DNA from: an uncultured Acidobacteriaceae bacterium
GTDB taxonomy: Bacteria; Acidobacteriota; Terriglobia; Terriglobales; Acidobacteriaceae
NCBI GenBank assembly: GCA_963832755.1
Contig: CAWHVM010000003.1
Span: 521,420-585,419, forward strand
Direction: 5' to 3'
DNA length: 64,000 nucleotides
In this document: positions 30,240-59,769 of the stretch, piece after piece
Layout: the number at the start of each line of letters is the position of its first letter
How positions within the stretch are numbered: position 1 is the first letter of the stretch
Notes under the pieces: model-generated
Told to the model about the DNA's origin: nothing
The model's input: the letters and a program-made list of their open reading frames with translations, nothing else
Databases searched by the model: none
Made by a program: the position numbers and the translations under genes

Positions 30240-31346
30240 TCAGGCGCGCTTCCACGTCACAGCAGGCGGACCCCAAACTTCCTCGGCGGTTTCGGCGACC
30301 AGGCGTAGCTTGGCCTCCTCATCGGCCACGCTTACCAGGTTGCCCTCGATCGTAGATGCAAAACCGCACTGCGGACTGAGCGCCAGCCGCTCCAAAGGGA
30401 TGAACTGCGAGGCTTGCTCGATGCGCTGTTTCAGTTCGTCCTTGCTCTCCAGGGCTGGCTTTTTGGAGCTGACGAGCCCCAGGACGACCGTGCGATCTTC
30501 GGGAACCTGGCGCAGTGGCTCGAAACCGCCCGAACGCTCATCGTCATATTCAAGCAGAAAGCGGTGAAAACGCGTTTTCTGAAACACCTTGGTGATCGGG
30601 CCATAATCGCCGGAAGCATAGAACCGGCTTTGATTATTGCCGCGGCAAAGGTGCAGGCCAAAAATAACGCCCGGATGATTGCCAATGACCGCATTGTCCA
30701 TTTCGGTGGAAAGATCGAGCAACCGGTCGGGATCATTGCCACGCTGGCGGTATCCCTCGCGCAACCGAGGGTCGAGCAAAGCGGCATATTGCGGCGAGTC
30801 AATCTGAATATATGTGCATCCCAGGCGGATTAACTCTTCCACTTCGTCCCGCAAGATGTCCACCAGATCGGCCAGATAACCGTCAATCTTGGGATAAGCG
30901 GCAGACGACTTCTTGTTGTCGTAATAAGCGGCTGCCTGCTGGGCGCTGATCATGGTTGTTTTTGCAGGATGATTTGTACGTGCCCGTAAATAGGTAAACT
31001 CCTCGGCGCACAAGGGGCGTTTCCGGCGGAGTTTAGAAACCACGACCGGCCGGGGCTGCACTACCTCCTCGCCTTTTTCGTTGCGGAAAGGAATGGCCCA
31101 TCCGCCGAACTTATCGAAGCCCTCCACGGCATCGATCAAGTGCCCGTAGAAAGCGTAGCGGCGCATCTCGCCGTCGGTGAGCATTTCCAGCCCGGCGCGC
31201 TTCTGCAACTCGACGGCTTCGTCAACCGCCCTGTCCTCGAGAGACTTGAACTCCGAATGGCCGATCTGGCCTTTCTCATGACGTTCGCGAGCGTCCTTCA
31301 AATACGAAGGTCGCAACAGACTTCCGACAACGTCGCTTCGATACAC
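30240..31346 (-). CDS. short cobalamin-independent methionine-synthase-like (MetE C-terminal/Meth_synt_2) zinc methyltransferase
   Basis: 368 aa. MYRSDVVGSLLRPSYLKDARE...LTDGEMRR. Putative Zn ligands in GLHLCRGN and LSPQCGF. Confidence 0.82.
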   Translation of the reverse strand: MYRSDVVGSLLRPSYLKDARERHEKGQIGHSEFKSLEDRAVDEAVELQKRAGLEMLTDGEMRRYAFYGHLIDAVEGFDKFGGWAIPFRNEKGEEVVQPRPVVVSKLRRKRPLCAEEFTYLRARTNHPAKTTMISAQQAAAYYDNKKSSAAYPKIDGYLADLVDILRDEVEELIRLGCTYIQIDSPQYAALLDPRLREGYRQRGNDPDRLLDLSTEMDNAVIGNHPGVIFGLHLCRGNNQSRFYASGDYGPITKVFQKTRFHRFLLEYDDERSGGFEPLRQVPEDRTVVLGLVSSKKPALESKDELKQRIEQASQFIPLERLALSPQCGFASTIEGNLVSVADEEAKLRLVAETAEEVWGPPAVTWKRA

Positions 31347-48798: not shown

Positions 48799-50709
48799 TT
48801 GCCGGGCTGGGATACATCCATTAAGCTCATCCCATTGAGTACACTGAACCATAGTACGAGGTTTGAACACGTTCCGCACCGGCCGGTGCGTTTCTTTTCG
48901 CCGGGGGTTGAGGTGATTCGCCGTGCGGACGGCAGTTTGCGGATGCGCTCCGTAGAACCCTTGCAGAATTACGACTCTCGCGTGGGGGATTGGCTGGACC
49001 GCTGGGCGGCGGAAGCACCCGATCGCATCTTCATCGTCGAGCAGACTCCAAACGGAGAGCGCAGCATCGCTTACGGAGAAGCGCGGGAGTCGGTGCTGTT
49101 TCTGGCCGAGGGATTGCTCGGCTATGGGCTCGGTCCAGAGCGACCGCTCGCCATTCTCGCTGAAAATGGAATTGATCACGCCCTCATCATGTTGGCCGCG
49201 CTTTATGTAGGTATCCCGGTCGCCCCCATCGCCCCTGCTTACGCCCTTCAATCGATCGATTATGTGAAGCTGTCCCATGCTTTTAAGTTGCTGACCCCCG
49301 GAATGGTGGTGGCCGATGACGGCGCGCTTTACGACAAACCGATTGAACACGCTCTGAACGCTGATATTCCGCTGATCGCTCTCCGCAACGCTGTGGCATC
49401 CACGAAATGGTGCGACCTGGCGTCGCTCAAAGGGGATGGAAGTCATCAGGATGAGGTGCGCGCAGCAGCGGCGCGGGTTGATCGGCAAACGATCGCCAAG
49501 TTTCTGTTCACCTCCGGCTCCACGGGCATGCCAAAAGTCGTCGTCAACACGCATGGCATGATCTGCAGCAACTCGCAGATGAAGCGGCAGGTGGCGCCGT
49601 GCCTGGTGGAAGAACCGCCCGTGATGGTCGATTGGGCTCCGTGGAACCATACCGCGGGCAGCAACAGCAATTTCAGCATCATCCTTCACAATGGCGGCAC
49701 GCTGTATATCGACCCCGGAAAGCCGACTCCCGCGAGGTTTGCCGCCAGCCTGGAACTTCTGCGACGAGTATCGCCGACCATCTACTTCAATGTGCCCCGC
49801 GGCTACGAGCTGTTGGTTCCGCACCTGGAGGCCGACCGCGCTTTTCGCGAGCATTTTTTCCGTCGGCTGAAATTTCTGTGGTATGCCGCGGCGTCGATGC
49901 AGCCGGCGACCTGGTTCGATCTGGAACGGCTTGCCGTGGAAACGGTCGGGCACAGGATTCTAACCGTGAGCGGCCTCGGCATGACCGAGACCGCGCCCAT
50001 TGCGCTCTTCGGCAACGCCAAAGCAAATGGCCCGGGGGTGGTCGGCATACCGGTCGCGGGCGTCGAACTCAAGCTCATCCCCGACGACAACAGCTTTGAA
50101 GTGCGGTATCGAGGCCCGAACGTCACTCCAGGCTACTGGCGCGATCCCGCGGCAACCGCGGCTGTTTTCGATGAGGAAGGCTTCCTGCGCTCCGGCGATT
50201 TGCTGAGTTTTATCGATCCGGAGCGGCCGCAGGCGGGTCTGCGTTTCGATGGCAGGATGAATGAAGTTTTCAAGCTGGATTCGGGCACCAAGGTCAGCGC
50301 CGGCAAGTTGCGCCTGGACGCGCTGGATATGCTGCGCCCGCTGGCGCAGGAAGTGGTGGTCGCCGGAGCTGGCCGCAAAGATGTGCGCATTCTTATCTTT
50401 CCCGACTGGGAGGTGTGCGCCGCCACAGCTGGCTTAGATGGCGCCGCTAGACCCGCACAAATCGCCGCCAACTCAACTGTCCGGGCGATGTTCTACGAAC
50501 GCCTCGCCAAAGTCTACTCTGCCGGAACCGGCAGCTCCAACCGCATCGTGGCTGGGCTGCTGGTGGAAGACCCACCATCAAGCGCGGCTGGCGAGCTAAC
50601 GGAGAAAGGCACGGTGAACAGTCGCGCCTTGCAGCGGAACCGGCCCGAACTTCTCGAAGCTTTGTTCGGAGATACAGATGAACGAGTGTTGCGTGTAGGA
50701 CGCGCTTAA
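48799..50709 (+). CDS. fcs: feruloyl-CoA-synthetase-like AMP-dependent ligase (start uncertain; TTG at 48799 or 48835)
   Basis: N-terminal ...VEVIRRADGSLRMRSVEPLQNYDSRVGDWLDRWAAEAPDRIFI resembles Fcs-type hydroxycinnamate-CoA ligases. Also FTSGSTGMPKVV and GLGMTE. About 625-636 aa. Confidence 0.75.
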   Translation: MPGWDTSIKLIPLSTLNHSTRFEHVPHRPVRFFSPGVEVIRRADGSLRMRSVEPLQNYDSRVGDWLDRWAAEAPDRIFIVEQTPNGERSIAYGEARESVLFLAEGLLGYGLGPERPLAILAENGIDHALIMLAALYVGIPVAPIAPAYALQSIDYVKLSHAFKLLTPGMVVADDGALYDKPIEHALNADIPLIALRNAVASTKWCDLASLKGDGSHQDEVRAAAARVDRQTIAKFLFTSGSTGMPKVVVNTHGMICSNSQMKRQVAPCLVEEPPVMVDWAPWNHTAGSNSNFSIILHNGGTLYIDPGKPTPARFAASLELLRRVSPTIYFNVPRGYELLVPHLEADRAFREHFFRRLKFLWYAAASMQPATWFDLERLAVETVGHRILTVSGLGMTETAPIALFGNAKANGPGVVGIPVAGVELKLIPDDNSFEVRYRGPNVTPGYWRDPAATAAVFDEEGFLRSGDLLSFIDPERPQAGLRFDGRMNEVFKLDSGTKVSAGKLRLDALDMLRPLAQEVVVAGAGRKDVRILIFPDWEVCAATAGLDGAARPAQIAANSTVRAMFYERLAKVYSAGTGSSNRIVAGLLVEDPPSSAAGELTEKGTVNSRALQRNRPELLEALFGDTDERVLRVGRA

Positions 50710-50798: not shown

Positions 50799-50812
50799 TT
50801 CCGTATACTGAA
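50799..50812. promoter_or_regulatory. near-palindrome TTCCGTATACTGAA overlapping a -10-like TATACT, upstream of ligM
   Basis: 13/14 match to the perfect palindrome at 53148-53161. ATGACA (50780-50785)-N18-TATACT (50804-50809) looks like a sigma-70-type promoter. Lies 47 nt upstream of the ligM ATG. Confidence 0.42.
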
Positions 50813-50858: not shown

Positions 50859-52256
50859 ATGAAACCGAACAGTCTGGAAGATTTGCTGCAGACGGTGGCA
50901 AGCCCCGTGACGATGTTGCGCAATTCACAGATCGGCGCTTACGTCTATCCGGTGGTTCCGTACGAGTACTCCAATTGGCGCGACGAACAACGCGCCTGGC
51001 GCGAGACCGCGGTTCTCTTCGACCAGTCGCACCATATGGTGAACATCTACGTCGAAGGCCGCGATGCGCTGCGAATGTTCTCCCATCTCGCAACCAACAG
51101 TTTTGCAAACTTCCCCGTCAATCGCGCCAAACAATTCGCACCTTGCACCTACGATGGCTTTGTCATCGGCGACGGCATTCTCTTTCATCTGGAAGAAAAC
51201 CGGCTGGTTTTTGTGGGGCGCGCGCCGGCCGCCAACTGGATTCAGTTTCACGCTGAAACCGGCGGCTATGCCGTGAAAATCGAAAAGGACGACAGGTCCC
51301 CTTCCAATCCGAAAGGCAAGGCTGTTTTTCGCAGCTGCTACCGTTACCAGATTCAAGGCCCGAATGCGCTGCAGATTCTGGAAAAACTGAACCGCGGGCC
51401 GGTCCCCGAGATCAAGTTCTTCCACATGGGTGCGATCAACATCGCCGGACGCAAGGTCCGCGCGCTGCGCCACGGCATGGCCGGCGCTCCTGGGCTTGAG
51501 ATCTGGGGGCCATACGAGGAGCGCGAGGAGATTCGGGCGGCGATTGTTGATGCGGGCAGCGATTTTGGCCTTTACGAAGTCGGAGCCAGAGCTTACTCCA
51601 CCAATACCCTGGAATCGGGATGGATTCCGTCTCCGCTTCCTGCGGTCTACACCGGCGAGAAGATGAAGGCCTACAGGCAGTGGCTGCCTGCCACCAGCTA
51701 CGAAGGAACGGGTTCGATCGGCGGCAGCTTCGAGTCCGATGACATCGAGAACTATTACATGTCGCCATTTGCTCTGGGTTATGGGCCGTTCATCAAATTC
51801 GACCACGATTTCGTCGGGAAAGAAGCGCTCCAGAAAATGGCCGGCGAACCGCAGAGGAGGAAGGTGACCTTCGCCTGGAATGCCGAGGATGTATTGAAGA
51901 TTTTCGCATCGATGTTTGAGGCGGGCGACATTTACAAGTATATCGATCTGCCGCAATCAAACTATACGTCCGCCTCCTACGACAAGGTCCTATCGGGAGG
52001 AAAAACGGTCGGGTTCTCCATGTTCGCGGGTTACAGCTATAACGAGCGCTCGATGCTCTCTCTGGGAGTCGTTGATCCGGATGTTGAAACCGGCACGGAA
52101 GTCAGGCTTGTATGGGGTGAGGCCGGAGGCGGCACGAAGAAGATCACCGTCGAGAGGCATAAACAAACGGAGATTCGTGCCATCGTCAGCCCGGTGCCTT
52201 ATTCCAAAGTCGCACGAGAGACATATGCAAGAGGATGGCGGACGGTTCAAGTGTGA
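50859..52256 (+). CDS. ligM: tetrahydrofolate-dependent aryl O-demethylase (vanillate/3-O-methylgallate O-demethylase, GcvT-fold)
   Basis: MLRNSQIGAYVYPVVPYEYSNWRDEQRAWRETAVLFDQSHHM...GRAPAANWIQFHAETGGYAVKIEKDDRSPSNP...LRHGMAGAPGLEIWGPYE...NTLESGWIPSPLPAVYTGEKMKAYRQWL. This is closely collinear with Sphingobium SYK-6 LigM as I remember it. Confidence 0.88.
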   Translation: MKPNSLEDLLQTVASPVTMLRNSQIGAYVYPVVPYEYSNWRDEQRAWRETAVLFDQSHHMVNIYVEGRDALRMFSHLATNSFANFPVNRAKQFAPCTYDGFVIGDGILFHLEENRLVFVGRAPAANWIQFHAETGGYAVKIEKDDRSPSNPKGKAVFRSCYRYQIQGPNALQILEKLNRGPVPEIKFFHMGAINIAGRKVRALRHGMAGAPGLEIWGPYEEREEIRAAIVDAGSDFGLYEVGARAYSTNTLESGWIPSPLPAVYTGEKMKAYRQWLPATSYEGTGSIGGSFESDDIENYYMSPFALGYGPFIKFDHDFVGKEALQKMAGEPQRRKVTFAWNAEDVLKIFASMFEAGDIYKYIDLPQSNYTSASYDKVLSGGKTVGFSMFAGYSYNERSMLSLGVVDPDVETGTEVRLVWGEAGGGTKKITVERHKQTEIRAIVSPVPYSKVARETYARGWRTVQV

Positions 52257-53140
52257 GAAGAAGATGTAGACGGTGCCGATAGAGACCTTTCGGCAGCAAT
52301 CCAATCCATAGTTTTTCTAAAGCCGCCAAAAATGTAGAAGTGCAGACCCGCGATGCCGAGCTTCCTGCCATCGCCGTCCGCCATAGAGGCCGCAAGTCCG
52401 CGGATAATCGGTTCGGGCCCTCTCTCCACGAGAATCTTGGCGAAGGATGGGTTTTCCTTCAGGACGTGCAGCGAGTTGCCTACTCCGCAGCGCACGGCAT
52501 ACCGCATGAGGGTTAACAAGCTGGCCGGGCCGGCCAACCCAATTCGTATCGGAACCTCTATACCGCGCGCCCGAACTGCTCGCACCCATTCGATCACGGG
52601 TTCAGCTTTGAAACAGAATTGCGTAATGATCGAAAGTTTCAGCCCCTCCGTGCGCGCGAAGCTGACTTTTGCCGCGAGCGCTTCATCCAGGATCTTCTCA
52701 GAGATGTGAGGGTTGCCTTCGGGAAAACCGCCGACCGCCATGCGAGTGATGCCGACTCTTTGAAACGCGCCGGTTTGCATGACCGCCAGGCTGCTGTCGT
52801 AGGGTCCGGCCGGTGTGGCCCGGTCGCCCCCGATGATCAGAATGCGATCCACGCCTGCATCCTTCAATTGCCCTGCCAGCCGCTGGAGCTGTGCCGCGCT
52901 CTGCAGATGACGCGCGCCCACGTGCGGTGTGGGGATGTGACCTGCACGCTTCAAACTTGCGGCCGGCGCGATCATATCCATTGGGTTTGATCCGGGAATC
53001 CAGGCCAGGGAGACTTCGGTGCCGGGATCGAGACGTTCTGCCGCTGCCTGCAAAGTTTTGGCGTCGCCCGGATTCAACTCAATCGAGTGGCCGCGCAGAA
53101 GTTCAATGACCGAAGCAGTTACAGAGTCTATGGCAGGCAT
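52247..53140 (-). CDS. metF: 5,10-methylenetetrahydrofolate reductase
   Basis: 297 aa. ...VDRILIIGGDRATPAGPYDSS...FPEGNPH...IITQFCF. Convergent with ligM, with the 3-prime ends overlapping by 10 nt. Confidence 0.85.
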   Translation of the reverse strand: MPAIDSVTASVIELLRGHSIELNPGDAKTLQAAAERLDPGTEVSLAWIPGSNPMDMIAPAASLKRAGHIPTPHVGARHLQSAAQLQRLAGQLKDAGVDRILIIGGDRATPAGPYDSSLAVMQTGAFQRVGITRMAVGGFPEGNPHISEKILDEALAAKVSFARTEGLKLSIITQFCFKAEPVIEWVRAVRARGIEVPIRIGLAGPASLLTLMRYAVRCGVGNSLHVLKENPSFAKILVERGPEPIIRGLAASMADGDGRKLGIAGLHFYIFGGFRKTMDWIAAERSLSAPSTSSSHT

Positions 53141-53147
53141 TGCAATA

Positions 53148-53161
53148 TTCAGTATACTGAA
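53148..53161. promoter_or_regulatory. perfect 14-bp palindrome TTCAGTATACTGAA between metF and the extradiol dioxygenase operon
   Basis: Lies 8 nt upstream of the metF ATG and 173 nt upstream of the dioxygenase ATG. Embeds TATACT on both strands. ATGGCA (53130-53135)-N17-TATACT is present on the plus strand. Confidence 0.45.
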
Positions 53162-53333: not shown

Positions 53334-54401
53334 ATGTCCCAGCGAGCCGGCAACGAAGGAAGCAATCGTCGAATCAGCCGCGCTCCCAAAGGTGGAATTG
53401 TGGAACACGAGCCGATCCTGGATCTCGCTCATCTCGGCCACTTGGAACTTCTCACTCCCAAGCTGGAAGAGAGCCTGCGGTTTTTCGTGCAGGTTATGGG
53501 CATGACCGAGAGCGGCCGGCAGGGCGACTCGGTCTACTTGCACGCCTATGACGATTATGAGCGGCATTCTCTGAAGCTCACGGCATCCAAACTGCCGGGC
53601 TTGGGCCATGTAGCTTATCGCGCACGAAGTCCGCAAGCGCTCGAACGGCGCGTGGCGGCTCTCAAAGGGTCGGGCTTTGACATAGGCTGGACAGAAGACG
53701 ACCTGGCGCATGGCCCGGCGTTTCTCTGCCAGGACCCGGACGGACACAGAATCGAGCTTTACTACGAAACCCAGTGGTATGAGGCGCCGCCTGAGTTGCG
53801 GCCTGCACTCAAGAACCAGGCGCAGAAATTTCCAGCGCGTGGCATCAATGTGCGCCGCCTCGACCATTGGAATGGGCTCGCGGCCGATGTTAAAGCGAAC
53901 CGCGAGTTTTTCGAAAAGTACCTAGGCTTTCGTTTGACCGAGCAAATTGTCATGGACGACGGCTCGGAAGCCGGCATGTGGATGACGTGTACGAACAAGA
54001 GCTACGATTTCGCCTACACGCGCGACCACACCGGCACGAAGGGGCGTTTCCACCATATAACCTATGCCGTCAATAGTCGTGAAGAAGTTCTGCTTGCGGC
54101 CGATATCTGCCTGGAAAATGGCGTTTACATTGAAACCGGTCCGCATAAGCATGCCATTCAACAAACCTTCTTCTTATATGTTTACGAACCTGGGGGCAAC
54201 CGCGTTGAGATTGCCAATGCCGGCGCACGTCTGATTTTGGCGCCGGACTGGAAGCCAATCCGGTGGAGCGAAGCGGAACGGAAGAAAGGACAAGCCTGGG
54301 GACTCAAGACGATCGAATCGTTCCATACCTACGGAACGCCGCCGGTGGAGTGCGCAAACAAAGACGTTGCCGCAAGGTCAAATACGAAACACAATGAATA
54401 G
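53334..54401 (+). CDS. type I (vicinal-oxygen-chelate) extradiol ring-cleavage dioxygenase, catechol-2,3-dioxygenase-like
   Basis: LAHLGHLELLTPKLEESLRFF...GLGHVAYR...HITYAV...GPHKHAIQQTFFLYVYEPGGNRVE. The start is uncertain (ATG 53334, or a downstream GTG in IVEHEP). Confidence 0.85.
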   Translation: MSQRAGNEGSNRRISRAPKGGIVEHEPILDLAHLGHLELLTPKLEESLRFFVQVMGMTESGRQGDSVYLHAYDDYERHSLKLTASKLPGLGHVAYRARSPQALERRVAALKGSGFDIGWTEDDLAHGPAFLCQDPDGHRIELYYETQWYEAPPELRPALKNQAQKFPARGINVRRLDHWNGLAADVKANREFFEKYLGFRLTEQIVMDDGSEAGMWMTCTNKSYDFAYTRDHTGTKGRFHHITYAVNSREEVLLAADICLENGVYIETGPHKHAIQQTFFLYVYEPGGNRVEIANAGARLILAPDWKPIRWSEAERKKGQAWGLKTIESFHTYGTPPVECANKDVAARSNTKHNE

Positions 54402-55113
54402 CAAACGCACAGCCCTCGTCGTGAGCGCCCATTCGGCAGATTTTGTGTGGCGGGCAGGCGGAGCAATCGCATTGTATGCCGGCCGCGGCTGGGACGTTAC
54501 GGTTGTTTGTCTGTCGTTCGGGGAGCGCGGCGAATCGGCGAAACTGTGGCGCGAGCCCGGTATGACGATGGAGAAAGTCAAGAGCAACAGGAAAGATGAG
54601 GCAACGCGCGCGGCGGAAATTCTTGGGGCCAAGGTGATTTTCTTCGATGTTGGCGATTATCCCATGAGAATTCCTGACAGTATGCTTTACGAACTAGCTG
54701 CGCTATACCGAAAGATTCGCCCGGAGTTTGTGCTCACGCACTCACTGAAAGATCCTTACAATTTCGATCATCCGCTGGTTTCTCATGCGGCACAGGAGGC
54801 GCGCATCGTGGCGCAGGCGCATGGACACGAACCGGGCACGCCGGTAATCGGCGCGCCGCCGGTATTCCTGTTCGAACCACACCAGCCGGAACAGTGTGAA
54901 TTTAAGCCGCAAGTACTGCTTGATATCACTCCGGTTTGGCCCAAAAAATATGAGGCCTTCAAAGCCATGAACGCCCAGGAGCATCTCTGGCACTACTACG
55001 AGAGGGTTGCCCTGCAGCGCGGTGTGCAGGCCTCGCGCAATTCCAATCGCACCATCCAGTATGGAGAAGCCTATCAGCGCGTATTTCCGCAGGTCACGGA
55101 GGAACTCGCATGA
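54394..55113 (+). CDS. galB: LmbE/PIG-L-fold zinc hydrolase-like protein, GalB-type 4-oxalomesaconate hydratase candidate
   Basis: [28 protein letters not shown]...[12 protein letters not shown]. The ATG overlaps the dioxygenase stop by 8 nt. Its position directly before the aldolase and tautomerase genes mirrors the Pseudomonas putida gal cluster. Confidence 0.72.
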
Positions 55114-55787
55114 ACGAACCGGTCGTGGTTCGCAATGTGGAGCAGCCGCCTGCCGAAGTCGTTGCCGCCCTGGAGAAGTTCGGTGTGACCACGGTGCACG
55201 AAGCGCAAGGACGTTGCGGCCTACTCGCTTCCTACATGCGCCCAATTTTTCCTGGCGCCACCATCGCCGGCCCGGCGGTGACCGTGTCGCTTCCTCCCGG
55301 CGACAACCTGATGATCCACGTGGCCGTCGAAGTGTGCTGCGCGGGAAATATTCTCATCGTTGCTCCAACTTCACCCTGTACAGACGGCTATTTCGGCGAG
55401 CTGCTCGCTACCTCCCTGCGTGCTCACGGCGTGAAGGGACTTGTGATTGACGCAGGTTGTCGCGACATCCGCCCTCTGACGGAAATGAAGTTTCCCGTCT
55501 GGAGCCGGGCCATCCATTCGCAAGGAACCGTGAAGAGCACGCTGGGGTCGGTGAATGTTCCGGTGGTGTGTGCGGGCGCAGTGGTGGAAGCCGGTGATGT
55601 GATTGTCGCCGATGATGACGGAGTCGTCGTGGTGCGGCGGACCGTTGCGCGTGAAGTAGCCGCTGCGGCAGAACAGCGGGCTCGCAAAGAAGATGCCACT
55701 CGAGAGCGGCTGGCCCGAGGTGAACTCGGTCTAGACATCTACGGCTTGCGCAAGAAGGTCGTGGACCTGGGATTGAAATACATCTGA
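55110..55787 (+). CDS. galC: RraA-fold 4-carboxy-4-hydroxy-2-oxoadipate aldolase / oxaloacetate decarboxylase (GalC/LigK type)
   Basis: ...[16 protein letters not shown]...[11 protein letters not shown]...[27 protein letters not shown]...[15 protein letters not shown] overlap with the upstream gene. Confidence 0.85.
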
Positions 55788-55799
55788 AGTTTTTTTGCA

Positions 55800-56936
55800 A
55801 TGTCGCGAACCTTGCAAATTGCCATCCCTTGTACACTGATGCGCGGCGGCACGTCTAAAGGGCCTTTCTTCCTGGCCAGCGACCTGCCAAGCGATGCGCA
55901 AACACGCGACCGGGTGTTGCTGGCTGCGATGGGATCTCCCGACCCCAGGCAAATCGACGGCGTCGGCGGCGCGGATCCTTTGACCAGCAAGGTGGCCATC
56001 GTCTCCCGTTCTTCGCGGCCCGAGATTGATGTCGATTATCTCTTTGCTCAAGTTTCTGTGGATCGGTCGCTGGTCGACGTTACGCCCACGTGCGGAAACA
56101 TGCTGGCAGGCGTCGGACCCTTTGCCATCGAACGTGGCCTGATTGCGGCCAGGGATCCAGTTACTGCGGTCACGATTTATATGGTGAACACCGGAACCGT
56201 GGCCGTGGCTCATGTGCCCACGCCCGGCGACGAAGTAACCTACGCCGGAGAAACGTCGATTGCCGGAGTTCCGGGCACGGCGGCCGCGATCCGCATCGAT
56301 TTCCGCGATACAGCAGGTGCAGTTTGTGGCGCTCTGCTGCCGACCGGCAAGATGCTCGACCAGTTCGACGGAATCGAGGCGACCCTGATTGATAACGGCA
56401 TGCCGATGGTTGTGCTGCGCGCTTCGGATTTCGGCAAATCTGGATACGAAACCCCTGCCGAGCTGAACTCCGACCAACAACTTAAAACGCGTCTGGAAGC
56501 GATTCGTATTCTGGCGGGCGAGCGCATGGGCTTGGGCGACGTGCGTTCGAAAGTAGTTCCGAAAATGACTTTGATCGCACCCCCGCAATCCGGCGGGCAC
56601 GTAATGACGCGCACATTTATTCCGCACAAATGTCACGCGGCCATCGGAGTTTTGATGGCGGTGACGGTGGGCACGGCGTGCATTCTTCCGGGCTCAGTCG
56701 CGCGTGGCATCGTGCGCTCGCAAAATGGGGCAGTGCAACGGCTCTCGATTGAGCATCCCAGCGGCGAATTTTCGGTTGAGTTTCAGGTGGAGCACTACGG
56801 CGGTGAACTGAAAGTGATCCGCTCGAGTCTGATTCGAACAGCGCGCGCGCTTTTTCGCGGCGAACTGCTAGTGCCGGCAAGCGTGTGGGAGGGAAACAAG
56901 ATCCTGACCTCCGCCGATGTTTCGCGAACCACGTAA
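55800..56936 (+). CDS. galD: PrpF-family isomerase, 4-oxalomesaconate tautomerase (GalD/LigU type)
   Basis: MSRTLQIAIPCTLMRGGTSKGPFFLASDLP...SPDPRQIDGVGGADPLTSKVAIV...TPTCGNM. 378 aa. Confidence 0.83.
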   Translation: MSRTLQIAIPCTLMRGGTSKGPFFLASDLPSDAQTRDRVLLAAMGSPDPRQIDGVGGADPLTSKVAIVSRSSRPEIDVDYLFAQVSVDRSLVDVTPTCGNMLAGVGPFAIERGLIAARDPVTAVTIYMVNTGTVAVAHVPTPGDEVTYAGETSIAGVPGTAAAIRIDFRDTAGAVCGALLPTGKMLDQFDGIEATLIDNGMPMVVLRASDFGKSGYETPAELNSDQQLKTRLEAIRILAGERMGLGDVRSKVVPKMTLIAPPQSGGHVMTRTFIPHKCHAAIGVLMAVTVGTACILPGSVARGIVRSQNGAVQRLSIEHPSGEFSVEFQVEHYGGELKVIRSSLIRTARALFRGELLVPASVWEGNKILTSADVSRTT

Positions 56937-56953
56937 CACACATCGTAGGAAAC

Positions 56954-57245
56954 ATGCATCCCACGAAATCCATTGATCGGGTAGCTATCATCGGCTTTGG
57001 TGAAGCCGGCGGTATTTTCGCTCACGATTTCGCCAAGCAAATGAGTGTCTCTAGTTCTTGACATTCTGTTCCACTCCAAGCGACGGCGACAACCCATGCT
57101 GAGGAACGCGCAAGCGTGCAGTGGTCAATCCACGACGCCGGCCAGGGCCGAGCAAGTGAGCTTGCACCTGCGAATGACAAGTCAGTATGCCGGCGTTACT
57201 CGTTCGACGGATGTTGTGCGGCTCGCACTCGGCAAATTTCTGTAA
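56954..57245 (+). pseudogene. remnant of an NAD(P)-binding (6PGDH-NAD-binding/DUF1932-like) dehydrogenase gene. Only about 36 in-frame codons are intact, followed by degraded sequence.
   Basis: ATG 56954 (AGGA 4 nt upstream) encodes MHPTKSIDRVAIIGFGEAGGIFAHDFAKQ, a Rossmann GxGxxG start, then hits TGA at 57062-57064. Only about 290 nt remain before the convergent GntR gene, whereas this family normally needs about 870 nt. Confidence 0.35.
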
Positions 57246-57965
57246 CTAACGGTCCGGAGCTGAGACTTCTGCAGCTGCCCCCACCGATCGCAAACCCAGC
57301 CTCGAAAGATTCATGCTTACCTTTGCTCCGTGGGCGTGCTCAACCATCAGGGCGGTCACTCGAGAACTCTCACCGTTTTCCAGCGCCTGAACGATGGTGT
57401 GGTGCTGGCGGTGCGAGTAGAGCAGGTGGTCGTACATGCGTGGAAGGTCAATCTTATCGAATGCAATCGCATGCGCCGCCGCAAACGGAATTCGCCCGTT
57501 GCGCTGGATCGCCTCAGCGACTACTTTGCTGCCTGATCCTTCCACGATCAGCGAATGGAATTGCCTATTCATGTCGCCGTATCGCGCTTCGTCCGCCAGA
57601 ACCAAGTGCCCTTTGGCGAAGATCTCATCCCCCTCAAAGAGACACTCATGCAGAGAGTGGATGAGGCGCCGGGGCGGCCCTTGTTCCGCCAACATACGAC
57701 CCGCCAAGCCCTCCAGAGCACCGCGGACGTCAATCGCATCCATGATTTCCTGCGGCGTGAATGCCCTCACAACAAACCCGCGAGTATTCAGCTGAGTCAA
57801 TACGCCTTCCTGTGCGAGGATAGGTAGAGCTTCACGCACCGGGGTTCGGGAAACCCCAAGCTTGGCCGCAAGTTCGACCTCTCTCACTCGCTCGCCTGGA
57901 GGTAGTTCTCCGTGGAGGACCATTTCGCGTATTCTTACGATCACCCGAGAGTTCTTGCCTGCCAT
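57246..57965 (-). CDS. GntR-family (FadR/FCD-type) transcriptional regulator
   Basis: Start trimmed to MAGKNSRVIVRIREMVLHGELPPGERVREVELAAKLGVSRTPVREAL, followed by an all-helical FCD-like C-terminus. Confidence 0.87.
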   Translation of the reverse strand: MAGKNSRVIVRIREMVLHGELPPGERVREVELAAKLGVSRTPVREALPILAQEGVLTQLNTRGFVVRAFTPQEIMDAIDVRGALEGLAGRMLAEQGPPRRLIHSLHECLFEGDEIFAKGHLVLADEARYGDMNRQFHSLIVEGSGSKVVAEAIQRNGRIPFAAAHAIAFDKIDLPRMYDHLLYSHRQHHTIVQALENGESSRVTALMVEHAHGAKVSMNLSRLGLRSVGAAAEVSAPDR

Positions 57966-58131
57966 TTTGTATGCAACCTGGGTAGGCCCGCCATTCAGGG
58001 CTGAAAGTCGCATACATTCTATTCGAATTCTGACGGGCCGAAAAACAATAAGTGAGCTGCAGGCGCGGCCAAGGGGTTACGATTCAATCCGCTTGTCGGC
58101 ACAAGTGAACAGCTTGAAATGGAGGTAACCG

Positions 58132-58863
58132 ATGTCGACCTATGTTTTGGTGCATGGCGCGTGGCGAGGCAGTTGGATCTGGAAGCGAGTCCGCAAAGCG
58201 CTGCAGGCGCACGGACACGAAGTCTTCACGCCCACTTTGACCGGCGTTGGCGAACGCAGCCATCTACTGTCTCCGCAAGTGAACCTTGAAACGCACATCG
58301 CCGATGTGATGAACCTCATTCGAGGGGAAGAGCTCTGCGACGTTGTGTTGTGCGGCCATTCGTACGGGGGGTGTGTCGTGAGCAGCGTGGCCGACCGCAT
58401 TCCAGAAAAGATAGGTGCGCTGGTCTATGTCGACGCATTTGTTCCCGAAAATGGTCAGAGCCTTCATGACACGCTTCCGCCGGAAGCCCGCAACGAACAA
58501 CTTGATGCTGCGAGAAAAGTGGGGGAAGGTTGGAAGACGCCCGCGATTCCCGCACAGGCATTCAACGTCAACTCCCGAGATCGCGATTGGGTGGACCGGC
58601 AGTCGACATCGCATCCCTTAGCGTGCTTTCAACAGCCCGTCCGTCTTACGGGAGCGATGAACCGGATCGGGGACATTACTTATATCATCGCAACCGGCTG
58701 GAGCCCCTCACCGTTCCCGCAGTTTTACGACAAGGCGAAAGCCCGGGGATGGAAGACACTCACTTTGGCATGCGGCCACGATGTGATGCTGGATCAACCG
58801 GAAGAACTTACTCAGGAATTATTGCCGATCTCTTCGCGGTCGGCGCCCGTGCGGCCGGCATAG
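58132..58863 (+). CDS. alpha/beta-fold esterase (SABP2/methyl-esterase-like)
   Basis: MSTYVLVHGAWRGSWIWKRV...VVLCGHSYGG (GxSxG nucleophile elbow). 243 aa. Confidence 0.83.
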   Translation: MSTYVLVHGAWRGSWIWKRVRKALQAHGHEVFTPTLTGVGERSHLLSPQVNLETHIADVMNLIRGEELCDVVLCGHSYGGCVVSSVADRIPEKIGALVYVDAFVPENGQSLHDTLPPEARNEQLDAARKVGEGWKTPAIPAQAFNVNSRDRDWVDRQSTSHPLACFQQPVRLTGAMNRIGDITYIIATGWSPSPFPQFYDKAKARGWKTLTLACGHDVMLDQPEELTQELLPISSRSAPVRPA

Positions 58864-58920: not shown

Positions 58921-59769
58921 TCAGGCCTCCAGCCGAAACAAGCGCATCGCATTTTCTTTCAGGATCAGCGGACGCACTTCGTCACGGATAGACAGCTTCT
59001 GGAAATCGGCCAGCCATCGATCGGGCGAAATCAACGGATAGTCGGAGCCGAACAACACTTTGTGCTTAAGCAGCGTGTTTGCATATTGCACGAGTATCGG
59101 CGGGAAGTACTTCGGCGACCAGCCCGAGAGATCGATGTATACCTGGGGCTTGTGCAGACACACGGAGATGGCCTCGTCCTGCCAGGGAAATGAGGGGTGC
59201 GCCATGATGATCGGCATGTCGGGGAAGTCGACGGCCACATCGTCGATATCCATGGGGTTGCCATACTTCAAGTGAACCCCGCCGCCCCCGGGCAACCCCG
59301 CGCCGATGCCGCTGTGCCCAGTATGAAAGATCACCGGCAATTTGGCTTGGTTGATGACTTCATAAAATGGATACGCCAGCTTGTCATTGGGATGGAACTG
59401 CTGCACCGGCGGATGGAGTTTGAAACCGCGAATCCCGCCCGCGGCAATTAACCGTTTCGCCTCTTCCACCGCTGCTTTGCCGCGCATGGGGTCTACGCTG
59501 GCGAAGGCGAACATGATATCGGAGTTTTCCGCGGCGAAGGCCGCGACCTCGTCGTTCGGAATGGGCGTGCGTCCGGTGAGCCGTTCGTCCACGCTGAAAA
59601 TCACACAGCCGATCTTGCGCGAGCGGTAGTATTCGGCTAGCGCGTGGCGGTCGCGGTCCACGCCGGAATTGCCGAAGTATTTTTTGGCGGCTTCGTTGGC
59701 CGCATTCTTGCCCTCATCATTTTCAAGGTGGACATGCACATCGATGGCGATCAGGTCACGAGCGTTCAT
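58921..59769 (-). CDS. amidohydrolase-2 (COG2159-type TIM-barrel metal-dependent hydrolase/decarboxylase) family protein
   Basis: AIDVHVHL..., FKLHPP, VIFHTGHSG and LFGSDYP. The ATG overlaps the pcaL stop (ATGA). Confidence 0.83.
   Translation of the reverse strand: MNARDLIAIDVHVHLENDEGKNAANEAAKKYFGNSGVDRDRHALAEYYRSRKIGCVIFSVDERLTGRTPIPNDEVAAFAAENSDIMFAFASVDPMRGKAAVEEAKRLIAAGGIRGFKLHPPVQQFHPNDKLAYPFYEVINQAKLPVIFHTGHSGIGAGLPGGGGVHLKYGNPMDIDDVAVDFPDMPIIMAHPSFPWQDEAISVCLHKPQVYIDLSGWSPKYFPPILVQYANTLLKHKVLFGSDYPLISPDRWLADFQKLSIRDEVRPLILKENAMRLFRLEA

Follow-up and report, generated by a model that had tools for sequence, protein, structure and literature searches.

The stretch of DNA analyzed here (the window) covers 64,000 nucleotides of an uncultured soil bacterium of the Acidobacteriaceae and carries, at positions 53334 to 56936, a plus-strand set of four coupled genes for a two-domain dioxygenase of the vicinal oxygen chelate (VOC) fold followed by galB, galC and galD. 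The first gene, encoding this type I (VOC) extradiol enzyme, occupies 53334..54401 (+), counted from its ATG. It is followed by galB at 54394..55113 (+), for an LmbE/PIG-L-fold hydratase of 4-oxalomesaconate (OMA) or its tautomer 2-keto-4-carboxy-3-hexenedioate (KCH), by galC/ligK at 55110..55787 (+), for an RraA-fold aldolase of CHA (4-carboxy-4-hydroxy-2-oxoadipate) / oxaloacetate decarboxylase, and by galD at 55800..56936 (+), for a PrpF-family OMA tautomerase. Recomputing the open reading frames (ORFs) gave the same coordinates and spacings as a preliminary description of this DNA: an 8-nt overlap joins the ATG of galB (54394) to the stop of the VOC gene, an ATGA (55110-55113) is common to galB and galC, and 12 nt separate galC from galD. 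That description had presented the first product as a 355-aa enzyme resembling catechol 2,3-dioxygenase (C23O). Its placement in the VOC family stands, with PF00903 matched in two stretches and the equivalog model TIGR03211 also matched, but the start giving 355 aa is probably too long and the protein is not an ordinary C23O, as the catalytic histidine is missing. Since most homologues measure 320-327 aa and AAGGTGG precedes a GTG at 53400, this alternative start, which gives 333 aa, is the likelier one; residue numbers used here follow the 333-aa form.

The three downstream genes, contiguous as in the gal lower pathway of Pseudomonas putida, had earlier been described as those of an LmbE-fold hydratase candidate, an RraA-fold CHA aldolase and a PrpF-family tautomerase, and they can now be called genuine orthologues of GalB, GalC and GalD. 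The GalB protein belongs to PF02585 (PIG-L) and matches P. putida GalB (5cgz) at an E-value of 1.9e-105. GalC is RraA-like according to Pfam and scores above the cut-offs of both CHA aldolase models, NF006731 (358 bits) and TIGR02798 (335 bits). GalD is a PrpF protein in Pfam and reaches 539 bits with the OMA tautomerase model NF033377, for which the cut-off is 440. GalB-type hydratases are rare, with six carriers among 251 sampled genomes of the class, yet they recur beside the VOC gene, which places the association of VOC and GalB far from chance.

Homologues of the VOC protein number in the thousands, and all are labelled "catechol 2,3-dioxygenase". Its relatives in the PDB include AphC (7q2a) and 3lm4, both from Rhodococcus and 41-45% identical, while LapB, XylE and homoprotocatechuate 2,3-dioxygenase (HPCD) are about 25% identical. 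An AlphaFold (AF2) model built from the alignment has a mean confidence (pLDDT) of 89.9 and superposes on AphC 7q2a and on 3lm4 with a template modelling (TM) score of 0.90. In ungapped HMMER alignments the iron ligands H156, H219 and E270 correspond to H155, H214 and E267 of HPCD and are invariant in 86 members of the clade to which the protein belongs; equivalents of HPCD N157, W192, H248 and Y257 are retained as well. Compared with AphC, XylE (1mpy) and HPCD (1q0c), the enzyme thus has the same fold and the same 2-His-1-carboxylate triad, and differs in carrying tyrosine in place of the second-sphere histidine and in standing among OMA and CHA enzymes instead of those of the 2-hydroxymuconate-semialdehyde (HMS) pathway. 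Of the hallmarks of a type I extradiol dioxygenase, the two VOC domains and the metal triad are present and the second-sphere histidine is absent.

The residue in question is the catalytic histidine known as His200 in HPCD and His199 in XylE, replaced here by Tyr202 within the motif N-K-S-Y-D. AphC, LapB and HPCD all have histidine at this position of the ungapped alignment. Tyr202 is invariant in all 86 clade members, which are 58-100% identical, and is also present in PDB entry 9WGJ. In a maximum-likelihood tree, from which four rows with degenerate motifs were omitted, the tyrosine sequences form a single clade with support of 100/98, and their sister group consists of histidine-type sequences that already possess an E-R-A-R-G-Q-A-W-G motif. 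The corresponding basic motif of the VOC protein is E293-R294-K295-K296-G-Q-A-W-G, with R294 invariant and K296 nearly so. It aligns with HPCD R292/R293, which we take to be part of the substrate-carboxylate pocket of that enzyme, at a place where AphC reads S-D-I-D-T-G-L-A-V-G-G. Judged from the alignment, a basic motif at this position would fit an anionic, carboxylated substrate, and we infer functional roles in the VOC enzyme for both Tyr202 and R294/K296. Entry 9WGJ (323 aa), deposited as a "catechol 1,2-dioxygenase", is about 62% identical to the VOC protein (E 1e-117) and has the motifs NKSYD, with tyrosine for histidine, and E-E-R-K-R-G-Q-A-W-G. It is a crystallized relative whose function label is uninformative; our literature search found no paper on it.

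Published gallate, 3-O-methylgallate and protocatechuate 4,5-dioxygenases are all of the LigB type (PMC12314914; PMC4250580), and a full-text literature search found no VOC-type dioxygenase for any of these three substrates. The source genome (G000) comprises 4.85 Mb in three contigs and is 91% complete. It contains zero matches to PF02900, the LigB family, and the VOC protein itself does not match this model either. The preliminary description had reported that the window has neither a LigAB/GalA homologue nor a hydrolase for 2-pyrone-4,6-dicarboxylate (PDC) of the LigI type, and had suggested a genome-wide search for ligAB and galA; the zero count is the outcome of that search, and no LigI-like PDC hydrolase/lactonase was found in the genome. 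With no LigAB/GalA- or LigI-type gene in the genome, the VOC enzyme holds up as the sole ring-cleavage candidate to feed GalB, GalC and GalD. Its gene is also the single two-domain extradiol-type VOC gene of the genome, aside from an unrelated three-repeat ORF. A protocatechuate 4,5 pathway of the LigABCIUJK type was not recovered in the genome, as there is no LigI-like gene, the only candidate dehydrogenase (DUF1932) is truncated, and LigC (Gfo/Idh/MocA family) was not searched for. The intradiol genes pcaHG, pcaB and pcaL, previously reported alongside the VOC operon, are present in the window.

Relatives of the VOC gene with 58-95% identity were mapped by tblastn in 80 loci from species-representative genomes and in hand-fetched ones, giving 84 distinct loci; counts are those of the tblastn mapping, greedy ORF clustering of the neighbourhoods having undercounted genes. 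In 50 of the 84 loci the VOC gene has, no more than 10 kb away, a gene for a CHA aldolase, one for an OMA hydratase of GalB or LigJ type, or the two together; 44 loci have both within this distance. At least five gene orders occur in two phyla, Acidobacteriota and Alphaproteobacteria. The order of the window (type A) consists of ligM, a divergent metF and VOC-galB-galC-galD, with or without a dehydrogenase gene. A second acidobacterial order (type B) runs VOC, alpha/beta hydrolase, a 232-aa protein, LigJ-type hydratase, galC and dehydrogenase, and its hydratase is a true LigJ-type enzyme (2gwg and 6dxq, E 6e-70). Pseudolabrys-type Alphaproteobacteria (type C) have galB-galC, an ABC transporter, VOC and dehydrogenase; Bradyrhizobium (type D) has a true LigI (4d8l, E 4.5e-64), TctC, galB, galC, an NMT1-like gene and VOC; genome G133 (type E) has galD, a LigI-like gene, galB, galC and a VOC gene only 58% identical to that of the window. 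In Bryobacterales (type F) the VOC gene lies beside ligM, sometimes with a MetE-like gene. Some orders use a GalB-type hydratase and others a LigJ-type one, which pins the intermediates they share to OMA/KCH and CHA.

Within the class sample, GalB adjoins a LigB-family, GalA-like gene of about 400 aa in G032 and G103, and adjoins the VOC gene in the source genome and G133, both of which lack any LigB gene genome-wide. GalB, VOC and LigB genes lie each on a separate contig in G197, and G143 has GalB, no VOC gene at the threshold used and no LigB match. No LigB-family gene was found in B. jicamae or in the cluster-bearing Pseudolabrys metagenome-assembled genome (MAG). In the five genomes with an "orphan" VOC gene a LigK-type aldolase is encoded elsewhere in all five, and two of them, both Bradyrhizobium, have galB-galC about 25 kb away. 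PcaH scores above its cut-off in 34 of 38 cluster-bearing genomes, with or without the dehydrogenase. Pairwise dN/dS (omega) against five relatives ranges from 0.02 to 0.11 for VOC, galB, galC, galD and ligM, in a comparison that takes in locus L003, which also lacks the dehydrogenase. The operon genes are under purifying selection.

The PrpF-type OMA tautomerase (NF033377) was not found anywhere in four cluster-bearing genomes, G251-G254 (loci L057, L046, L083 and L020), so the tautomerase step is either dispensable there or performed by another protein. The 232-aa protein of type B (L020:11886-12584), whose gene has that of the alpha/beta hydrolase on one side and that of the LigJ-type hydratase on the other, has no Pfam or NCBIfam match and is a candidate tautomerase where PrpF-type GalD is missing.

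Two further genes lie upstream of the operon. The first, ligM (50859..52256, +), encodes a tetrahydrofolate-dependent vanillate/3-O-methylgallate O-demethylase (NF047885, 753 bits, cut-off 580) and is the only LigM/DesA-family O-demethylase gene of the genome. The second, at 52247..53140 (-), is metF-like, with a weak match to methylenetetrahydrofolate reductase; it runs divergently to the VOC operon, a placement conserved in relatives. Between metF and VOC there is a perfect palindrome, TTCAGTATACTGAA, at 53148..53161, which related loci have in the corresponding position, and a copy matching it at 13 of 14 positions, TTCCGTATACTGAA, lies upstream of ligM at 50799..50812 and is likewise conserved. 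The chance expectation for such matches is 0.02. In ten type-A loci the pattern TTCNGTATACNGAA precedes ligM, and seven of these have it in the metF/VOC intergenic region too. A core of the form GT-N2-AC suits GntR-type operators. From its sequence and position, the palindrome would link the operon with ligM and metF as a conserved putative operator. A gene for a GntR/FCD-family regulator (57246..58013, -), which adjoins the operon in relatives too, encodes the candidate protein for binding this shared element. A third, weaker copy with two mismatches, TTGAGTACACTGAA, is located at 48835-48848 in the intergenic region between a MarR gene and an fcs-like ligase gene and hints at a wider regulon.

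Taken together, the operon is a real and conserved variant of gallate-type meta cleavage, non-orthologous and probably functional. More specifically, we propose, with a probability of about 0.6, a route in which a VOC (type I) gallate / 3-O-methylgallate dioxygenase replaces the LigB-type enzymes GalA, DesB and DesZ. LigM, with MetF-type folate recycling, would demethylate 3-O-methylgallate to gallate. The VOC Fe(II) enzyme would bind the 4-carboxy-catechol via its vicinal hydroxyls and open the ring beside the third oxygenated carbon, giving OMA directly from gallate, and from 3-O-methylgallate either 4-carboxy-2-hydroxy-6-methoxy-6-oxohexa-2,4-dienoate (CHMOD), a methyl ester, or PDC. The cleavage product could then be tautomerized by GalD, hydrated to CHA by GalB and split by GalC into pyruvate and oxaloacetate. 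Joint regulation of ligM, metF and the operon is probable, by a GntR-type repressor that acts on the palindrome they share. What the VOC enzyme cleaves (gallate, 3-O-methylgallate or protocatechuate) and what it forms, like the pairing of regulator and operator, are inferred from gene content and context. In Sphingobium SYK-6, N. aromaticivorans and Pseudomonas sp. NGC7, cleavage of 3-O-methylgallate gives CHMOD, which undergoes hydrolysis by an esterase or cyclization to PDC (PMC12314914). Such cleavage of 3-O-methylgallate fits the LigI encoded within the type D and type E clusters and the type B alpha/beta hydrolase.

The closest known parallel in overall logic is the gal pathway of P. putida KT2440 (GalA, GalD, GalB, GalC), which proceeds by cleavage to OMA and the action of tautomerase, hydratase and aldolase to pyruvate and oxaloacetate. 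GalB of the operon is orthologous to its counterpart there, and the scores of GalC and GalD exceed the cut-offs of the NCBIfam equivalogs. The two systems differ in the ring-cleavage enzyme, which is a two-domain VOC protein here and the LigB-superfamily GalA in KT2440, in the likely regulator (GntR-type here, the LysR-type GalR there) and in linkage, the operon being linked here to ligM and metF and in KT2440 to galT and galP. Syringate and 3-O-methylgallate systems offer a second comparison, namely those of Sphingobium SYK-6 (DesA, LigM, DesZ, DesB, LigAB) and Pseudomonas sp. NGC7 (MgaAB, MgaC, MgaD, GalDBC; PMC12314914). The GalD/GalB/GalC end is shared with these, LigM adjoins the operon here, and NGC7 also has a GntR-type repressor as well as an alpha/beta hydrolase, MgaC, beside its dioxygenase, as in the type B arrangement. 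However, the dioxygenases of SYK-6 and NGC7 are LigB-type, and the genome studied here lacks DesA and LigI.

The commonest partner of the tyrosine-type VOC gene is a dehydrogenase of the NAD_binding_2/DUF1932 family, encoded after galD, galC or VOC itself in 34 of the 84 loci, with intact examples at L011:13595-14575 and L057:10953-11885. The window retains only its 5' remnant behind galD (56954..57061, +), 35 codons with the Rossmann motif IIGFGEAGG, recognized by homology to the intact gene at this position in relatives; no other copy was found in the source genome. The closest MAGs (L003-L005) likewise lack the gene. All PDB relatives of the family (4ezb, 3qsg and 1i36) are uncharacterized, and our literature search found nothing on DUF1932. 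A protocatechuate 4,5 route requires a dehydrogenase, which converts 4-carboxy-2-hydroxymuconate-6-semialdehyde (CHMS) to PDC, and a lactonase. The remnant, which the preliminary description had noted apart from the operon, could mark an ancestral protocatechuate 4,5 route. The idea that the dehydrogenase tracks the absence of an ortho pathway was rejected, as PcaH is nearly universal among carriers.

Several observations weigh against a gallate or 3-O-methylgallate dioxygenase. Conversion of gallate to OMA needs no dehydrogenase, so the frequency of the DUF1932 partner counts against it. The true LigI of the Bradyrhizobium cluster and the LigI-like gene of the G133 cluster imply a PDC intermediate there, which is easier to reconcile with 3-O-methylgallate or protocatechuate than with gallate. 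With no DesA in the genome, the substrate may come from a source other than syringate. No partner gene at all lies inside 10 kb in 23 of the 84 VOC loci, the VOC protein narrowly passes the "catechol 2,3-dioxygenase" model TIGR03211 (345 bits, cut-off 320.2), and no published assay of any tyrosine-clade member was found in the literature. Alternatively, the clade could be a VOC-type protocatechuate 4,5-dioxygenase, perhaps as broad as LigAB, with the DUF1932 protein as a non-orthologous CHMS dehydrogenase making PDC and a LigI- or PcaD-like hydrolase leading from PDC to OMA; the lineage of the window, having lost the dehydrogenase, would keep only a gallate-type side activity or a decaying pathway. 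No gene adjoins VOC more often than the dehydrogenase, with 34 of the 84 loci and three gene orders, the Bradyrhizobium cluster has its true LigI, type B offers six genes for six steps, and LigM also produces protocatechuate, from vanillate. We nevertheless regard this explanation as rather unlikely. B. jicamae, G133 and the source genome have kept the cluster with no intact DUF1932 dehydrogenase found genome-wide, the dehydrogenase-less operon is under strong purifying selection, and the dehydrogenase family has no characterized member. Moreover, PcaH is present in nearly all carriers regardless of the dehydrogenase and gives protocatechuate an ortho route, which makes it an unlikely main substrate.

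The accessory genes differ among the arrangements, the replacement of histidine by tyrosine suggests altered chemistry, and MetE-like genes adjoin VOC in some loci, all of which could point to cleavage of some other oxygenated aromatic, such as pyrogallol, a methoxy- or hydroxy-hydroquinone or a 5-substituted protocatechuate, with variable dehydrogenases, esterases or lactonases leading to the hydratase and aldolase. This seems improbable to us, given that GalB/LigJ hydratases and LigK aldolases are specific for tricarboxylates which retain the ring carboxyl group and that a substrate with a carboxyl group suits the conserved basic motif. Least credible is an ordinary 2,3-dioxygenase for catechol or alkylcatechols that merely lies beside galBCD. 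The TIGR03211 score would favour it, as would the nearest characterized relative, AphC, which is a 4-alkylcatechol dioxygenase with the identity and TM score given above. The 8-nt overlap with galB, the linkage to OMA and CHA enzymes kept across phyla and gene orders, the tyrosine found in every clade member and the basic motif where AphC has an acidic/hydrophobic one all argue against it. A catechol meta-pathway context is lacking as well, the neighbours being GalB, GalC and GalD. We thus rank a gallate/3-O-methylgallate dioxygenase ahead of a broad, LigAB-like enzyme that includes protocatechuate among its substrates, and both ahead of an ordinary C23O, which is unlikely.

Gallate and 3-O-methylgallate are funnel points for tannins and syringyl lignin. 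As the published ring-openers are all LigB-type, genome surveys based on GalA, DesB or LigAB would score abundant soil carriers of the VOC gene as non-users. On a wider view, to which we give even odds, the multi-phylum tyrosine clade would be the main gallate/3-O-methylgallate ring-opener of soil Acidobacteriota and Bradyrhizobium-type Alphaproteobacteria, a non-orthologous substitute for the LigB-type enzymes with altered proton transfer and O2 activation, at present mislabelled in databases as catechol 2,3-dioxygenase. If true, thousands of such annotations would be corrected, a single-subunit enzyme would become available for funnelling lignin to PDC or pyruvate, and a natural His-to-Tyr variant could serve to probe whether this residue acts as the proposed acid/base in extradiol catalysis. 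The partner enzyme of the DUF1932 family offers a second target, open to direct testing. New here are the typing of gene orders, the swap of GalB and LigJ hydratases, the conserved operator connecting the operon with ligM and metF, the finding that this lineage has lost the dehydrogenase while purifying selection continues on the other genes, and the PcaH co-occurrence test.

Other genes of the genome were considered as parts of a ring-cleavage pathway and set aside. A catechol meta pathway at another site of the genome, which could employ a C23O, was rejected: the one genome match to TIGR03216 ("HMS dehydrogenase") is the aminomuconate-semialdehyde dehydrogenase of a kynurenine/3-hydroxyanthranilate cluster, so that no HMS dehydrogenase for such a pathway was identified in the genome. 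A match to TIGR03217 (4-hydroxy-2-oxovalerate aldolase) on contig 1 reaches 275.9 bits, below the cut-off of 286. The kynurenine cluster lies outside the window at G000:C3:437000-457000 (L090), adjoining an rmlBACD set, and encodes a tryptophan 2,3-dioxygenase fusion, a monooxygenase resembling kynurenine 3-monooxygenase (KMO), kynureninase, 3-hydroxyanthranilate 3,4-dioxygenase, RidA and the aldehyde dehydrogenase that scores as "HMS dehydrogenase".

Within the window, an Amidohydro_2 gene (58921-59769, -) was excluded by sequence as LigI or LigJ; it is part of the pcaB-pcaL unit, and its only PDB relative is 3irs, the uncharacterized protein BB4693. The 282-aa product is translationally coupled to pcaL and is 92-96% conserved in related MAGs, and in L009 its gene adjoins ligM; it could be a lactonase. 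The alpha/beta hydrolase of the window (58132-58863) shows no specific relationship to the VOC-adjacent hydrolase of type B and was rejected as its counterpart. In other bacteria, genes for MetE-like proteins of the Meth_synt_2 family, about 370 aa long, are repeatedly found beside VOC or LigM (L001:3574-4707; L039, L024, L089). The window has a gene of this kind at 30240-31346 (-), where it ends the pcaHG operon. These proteins may represent a methyl-transfer partner in aryl O-demethylation.

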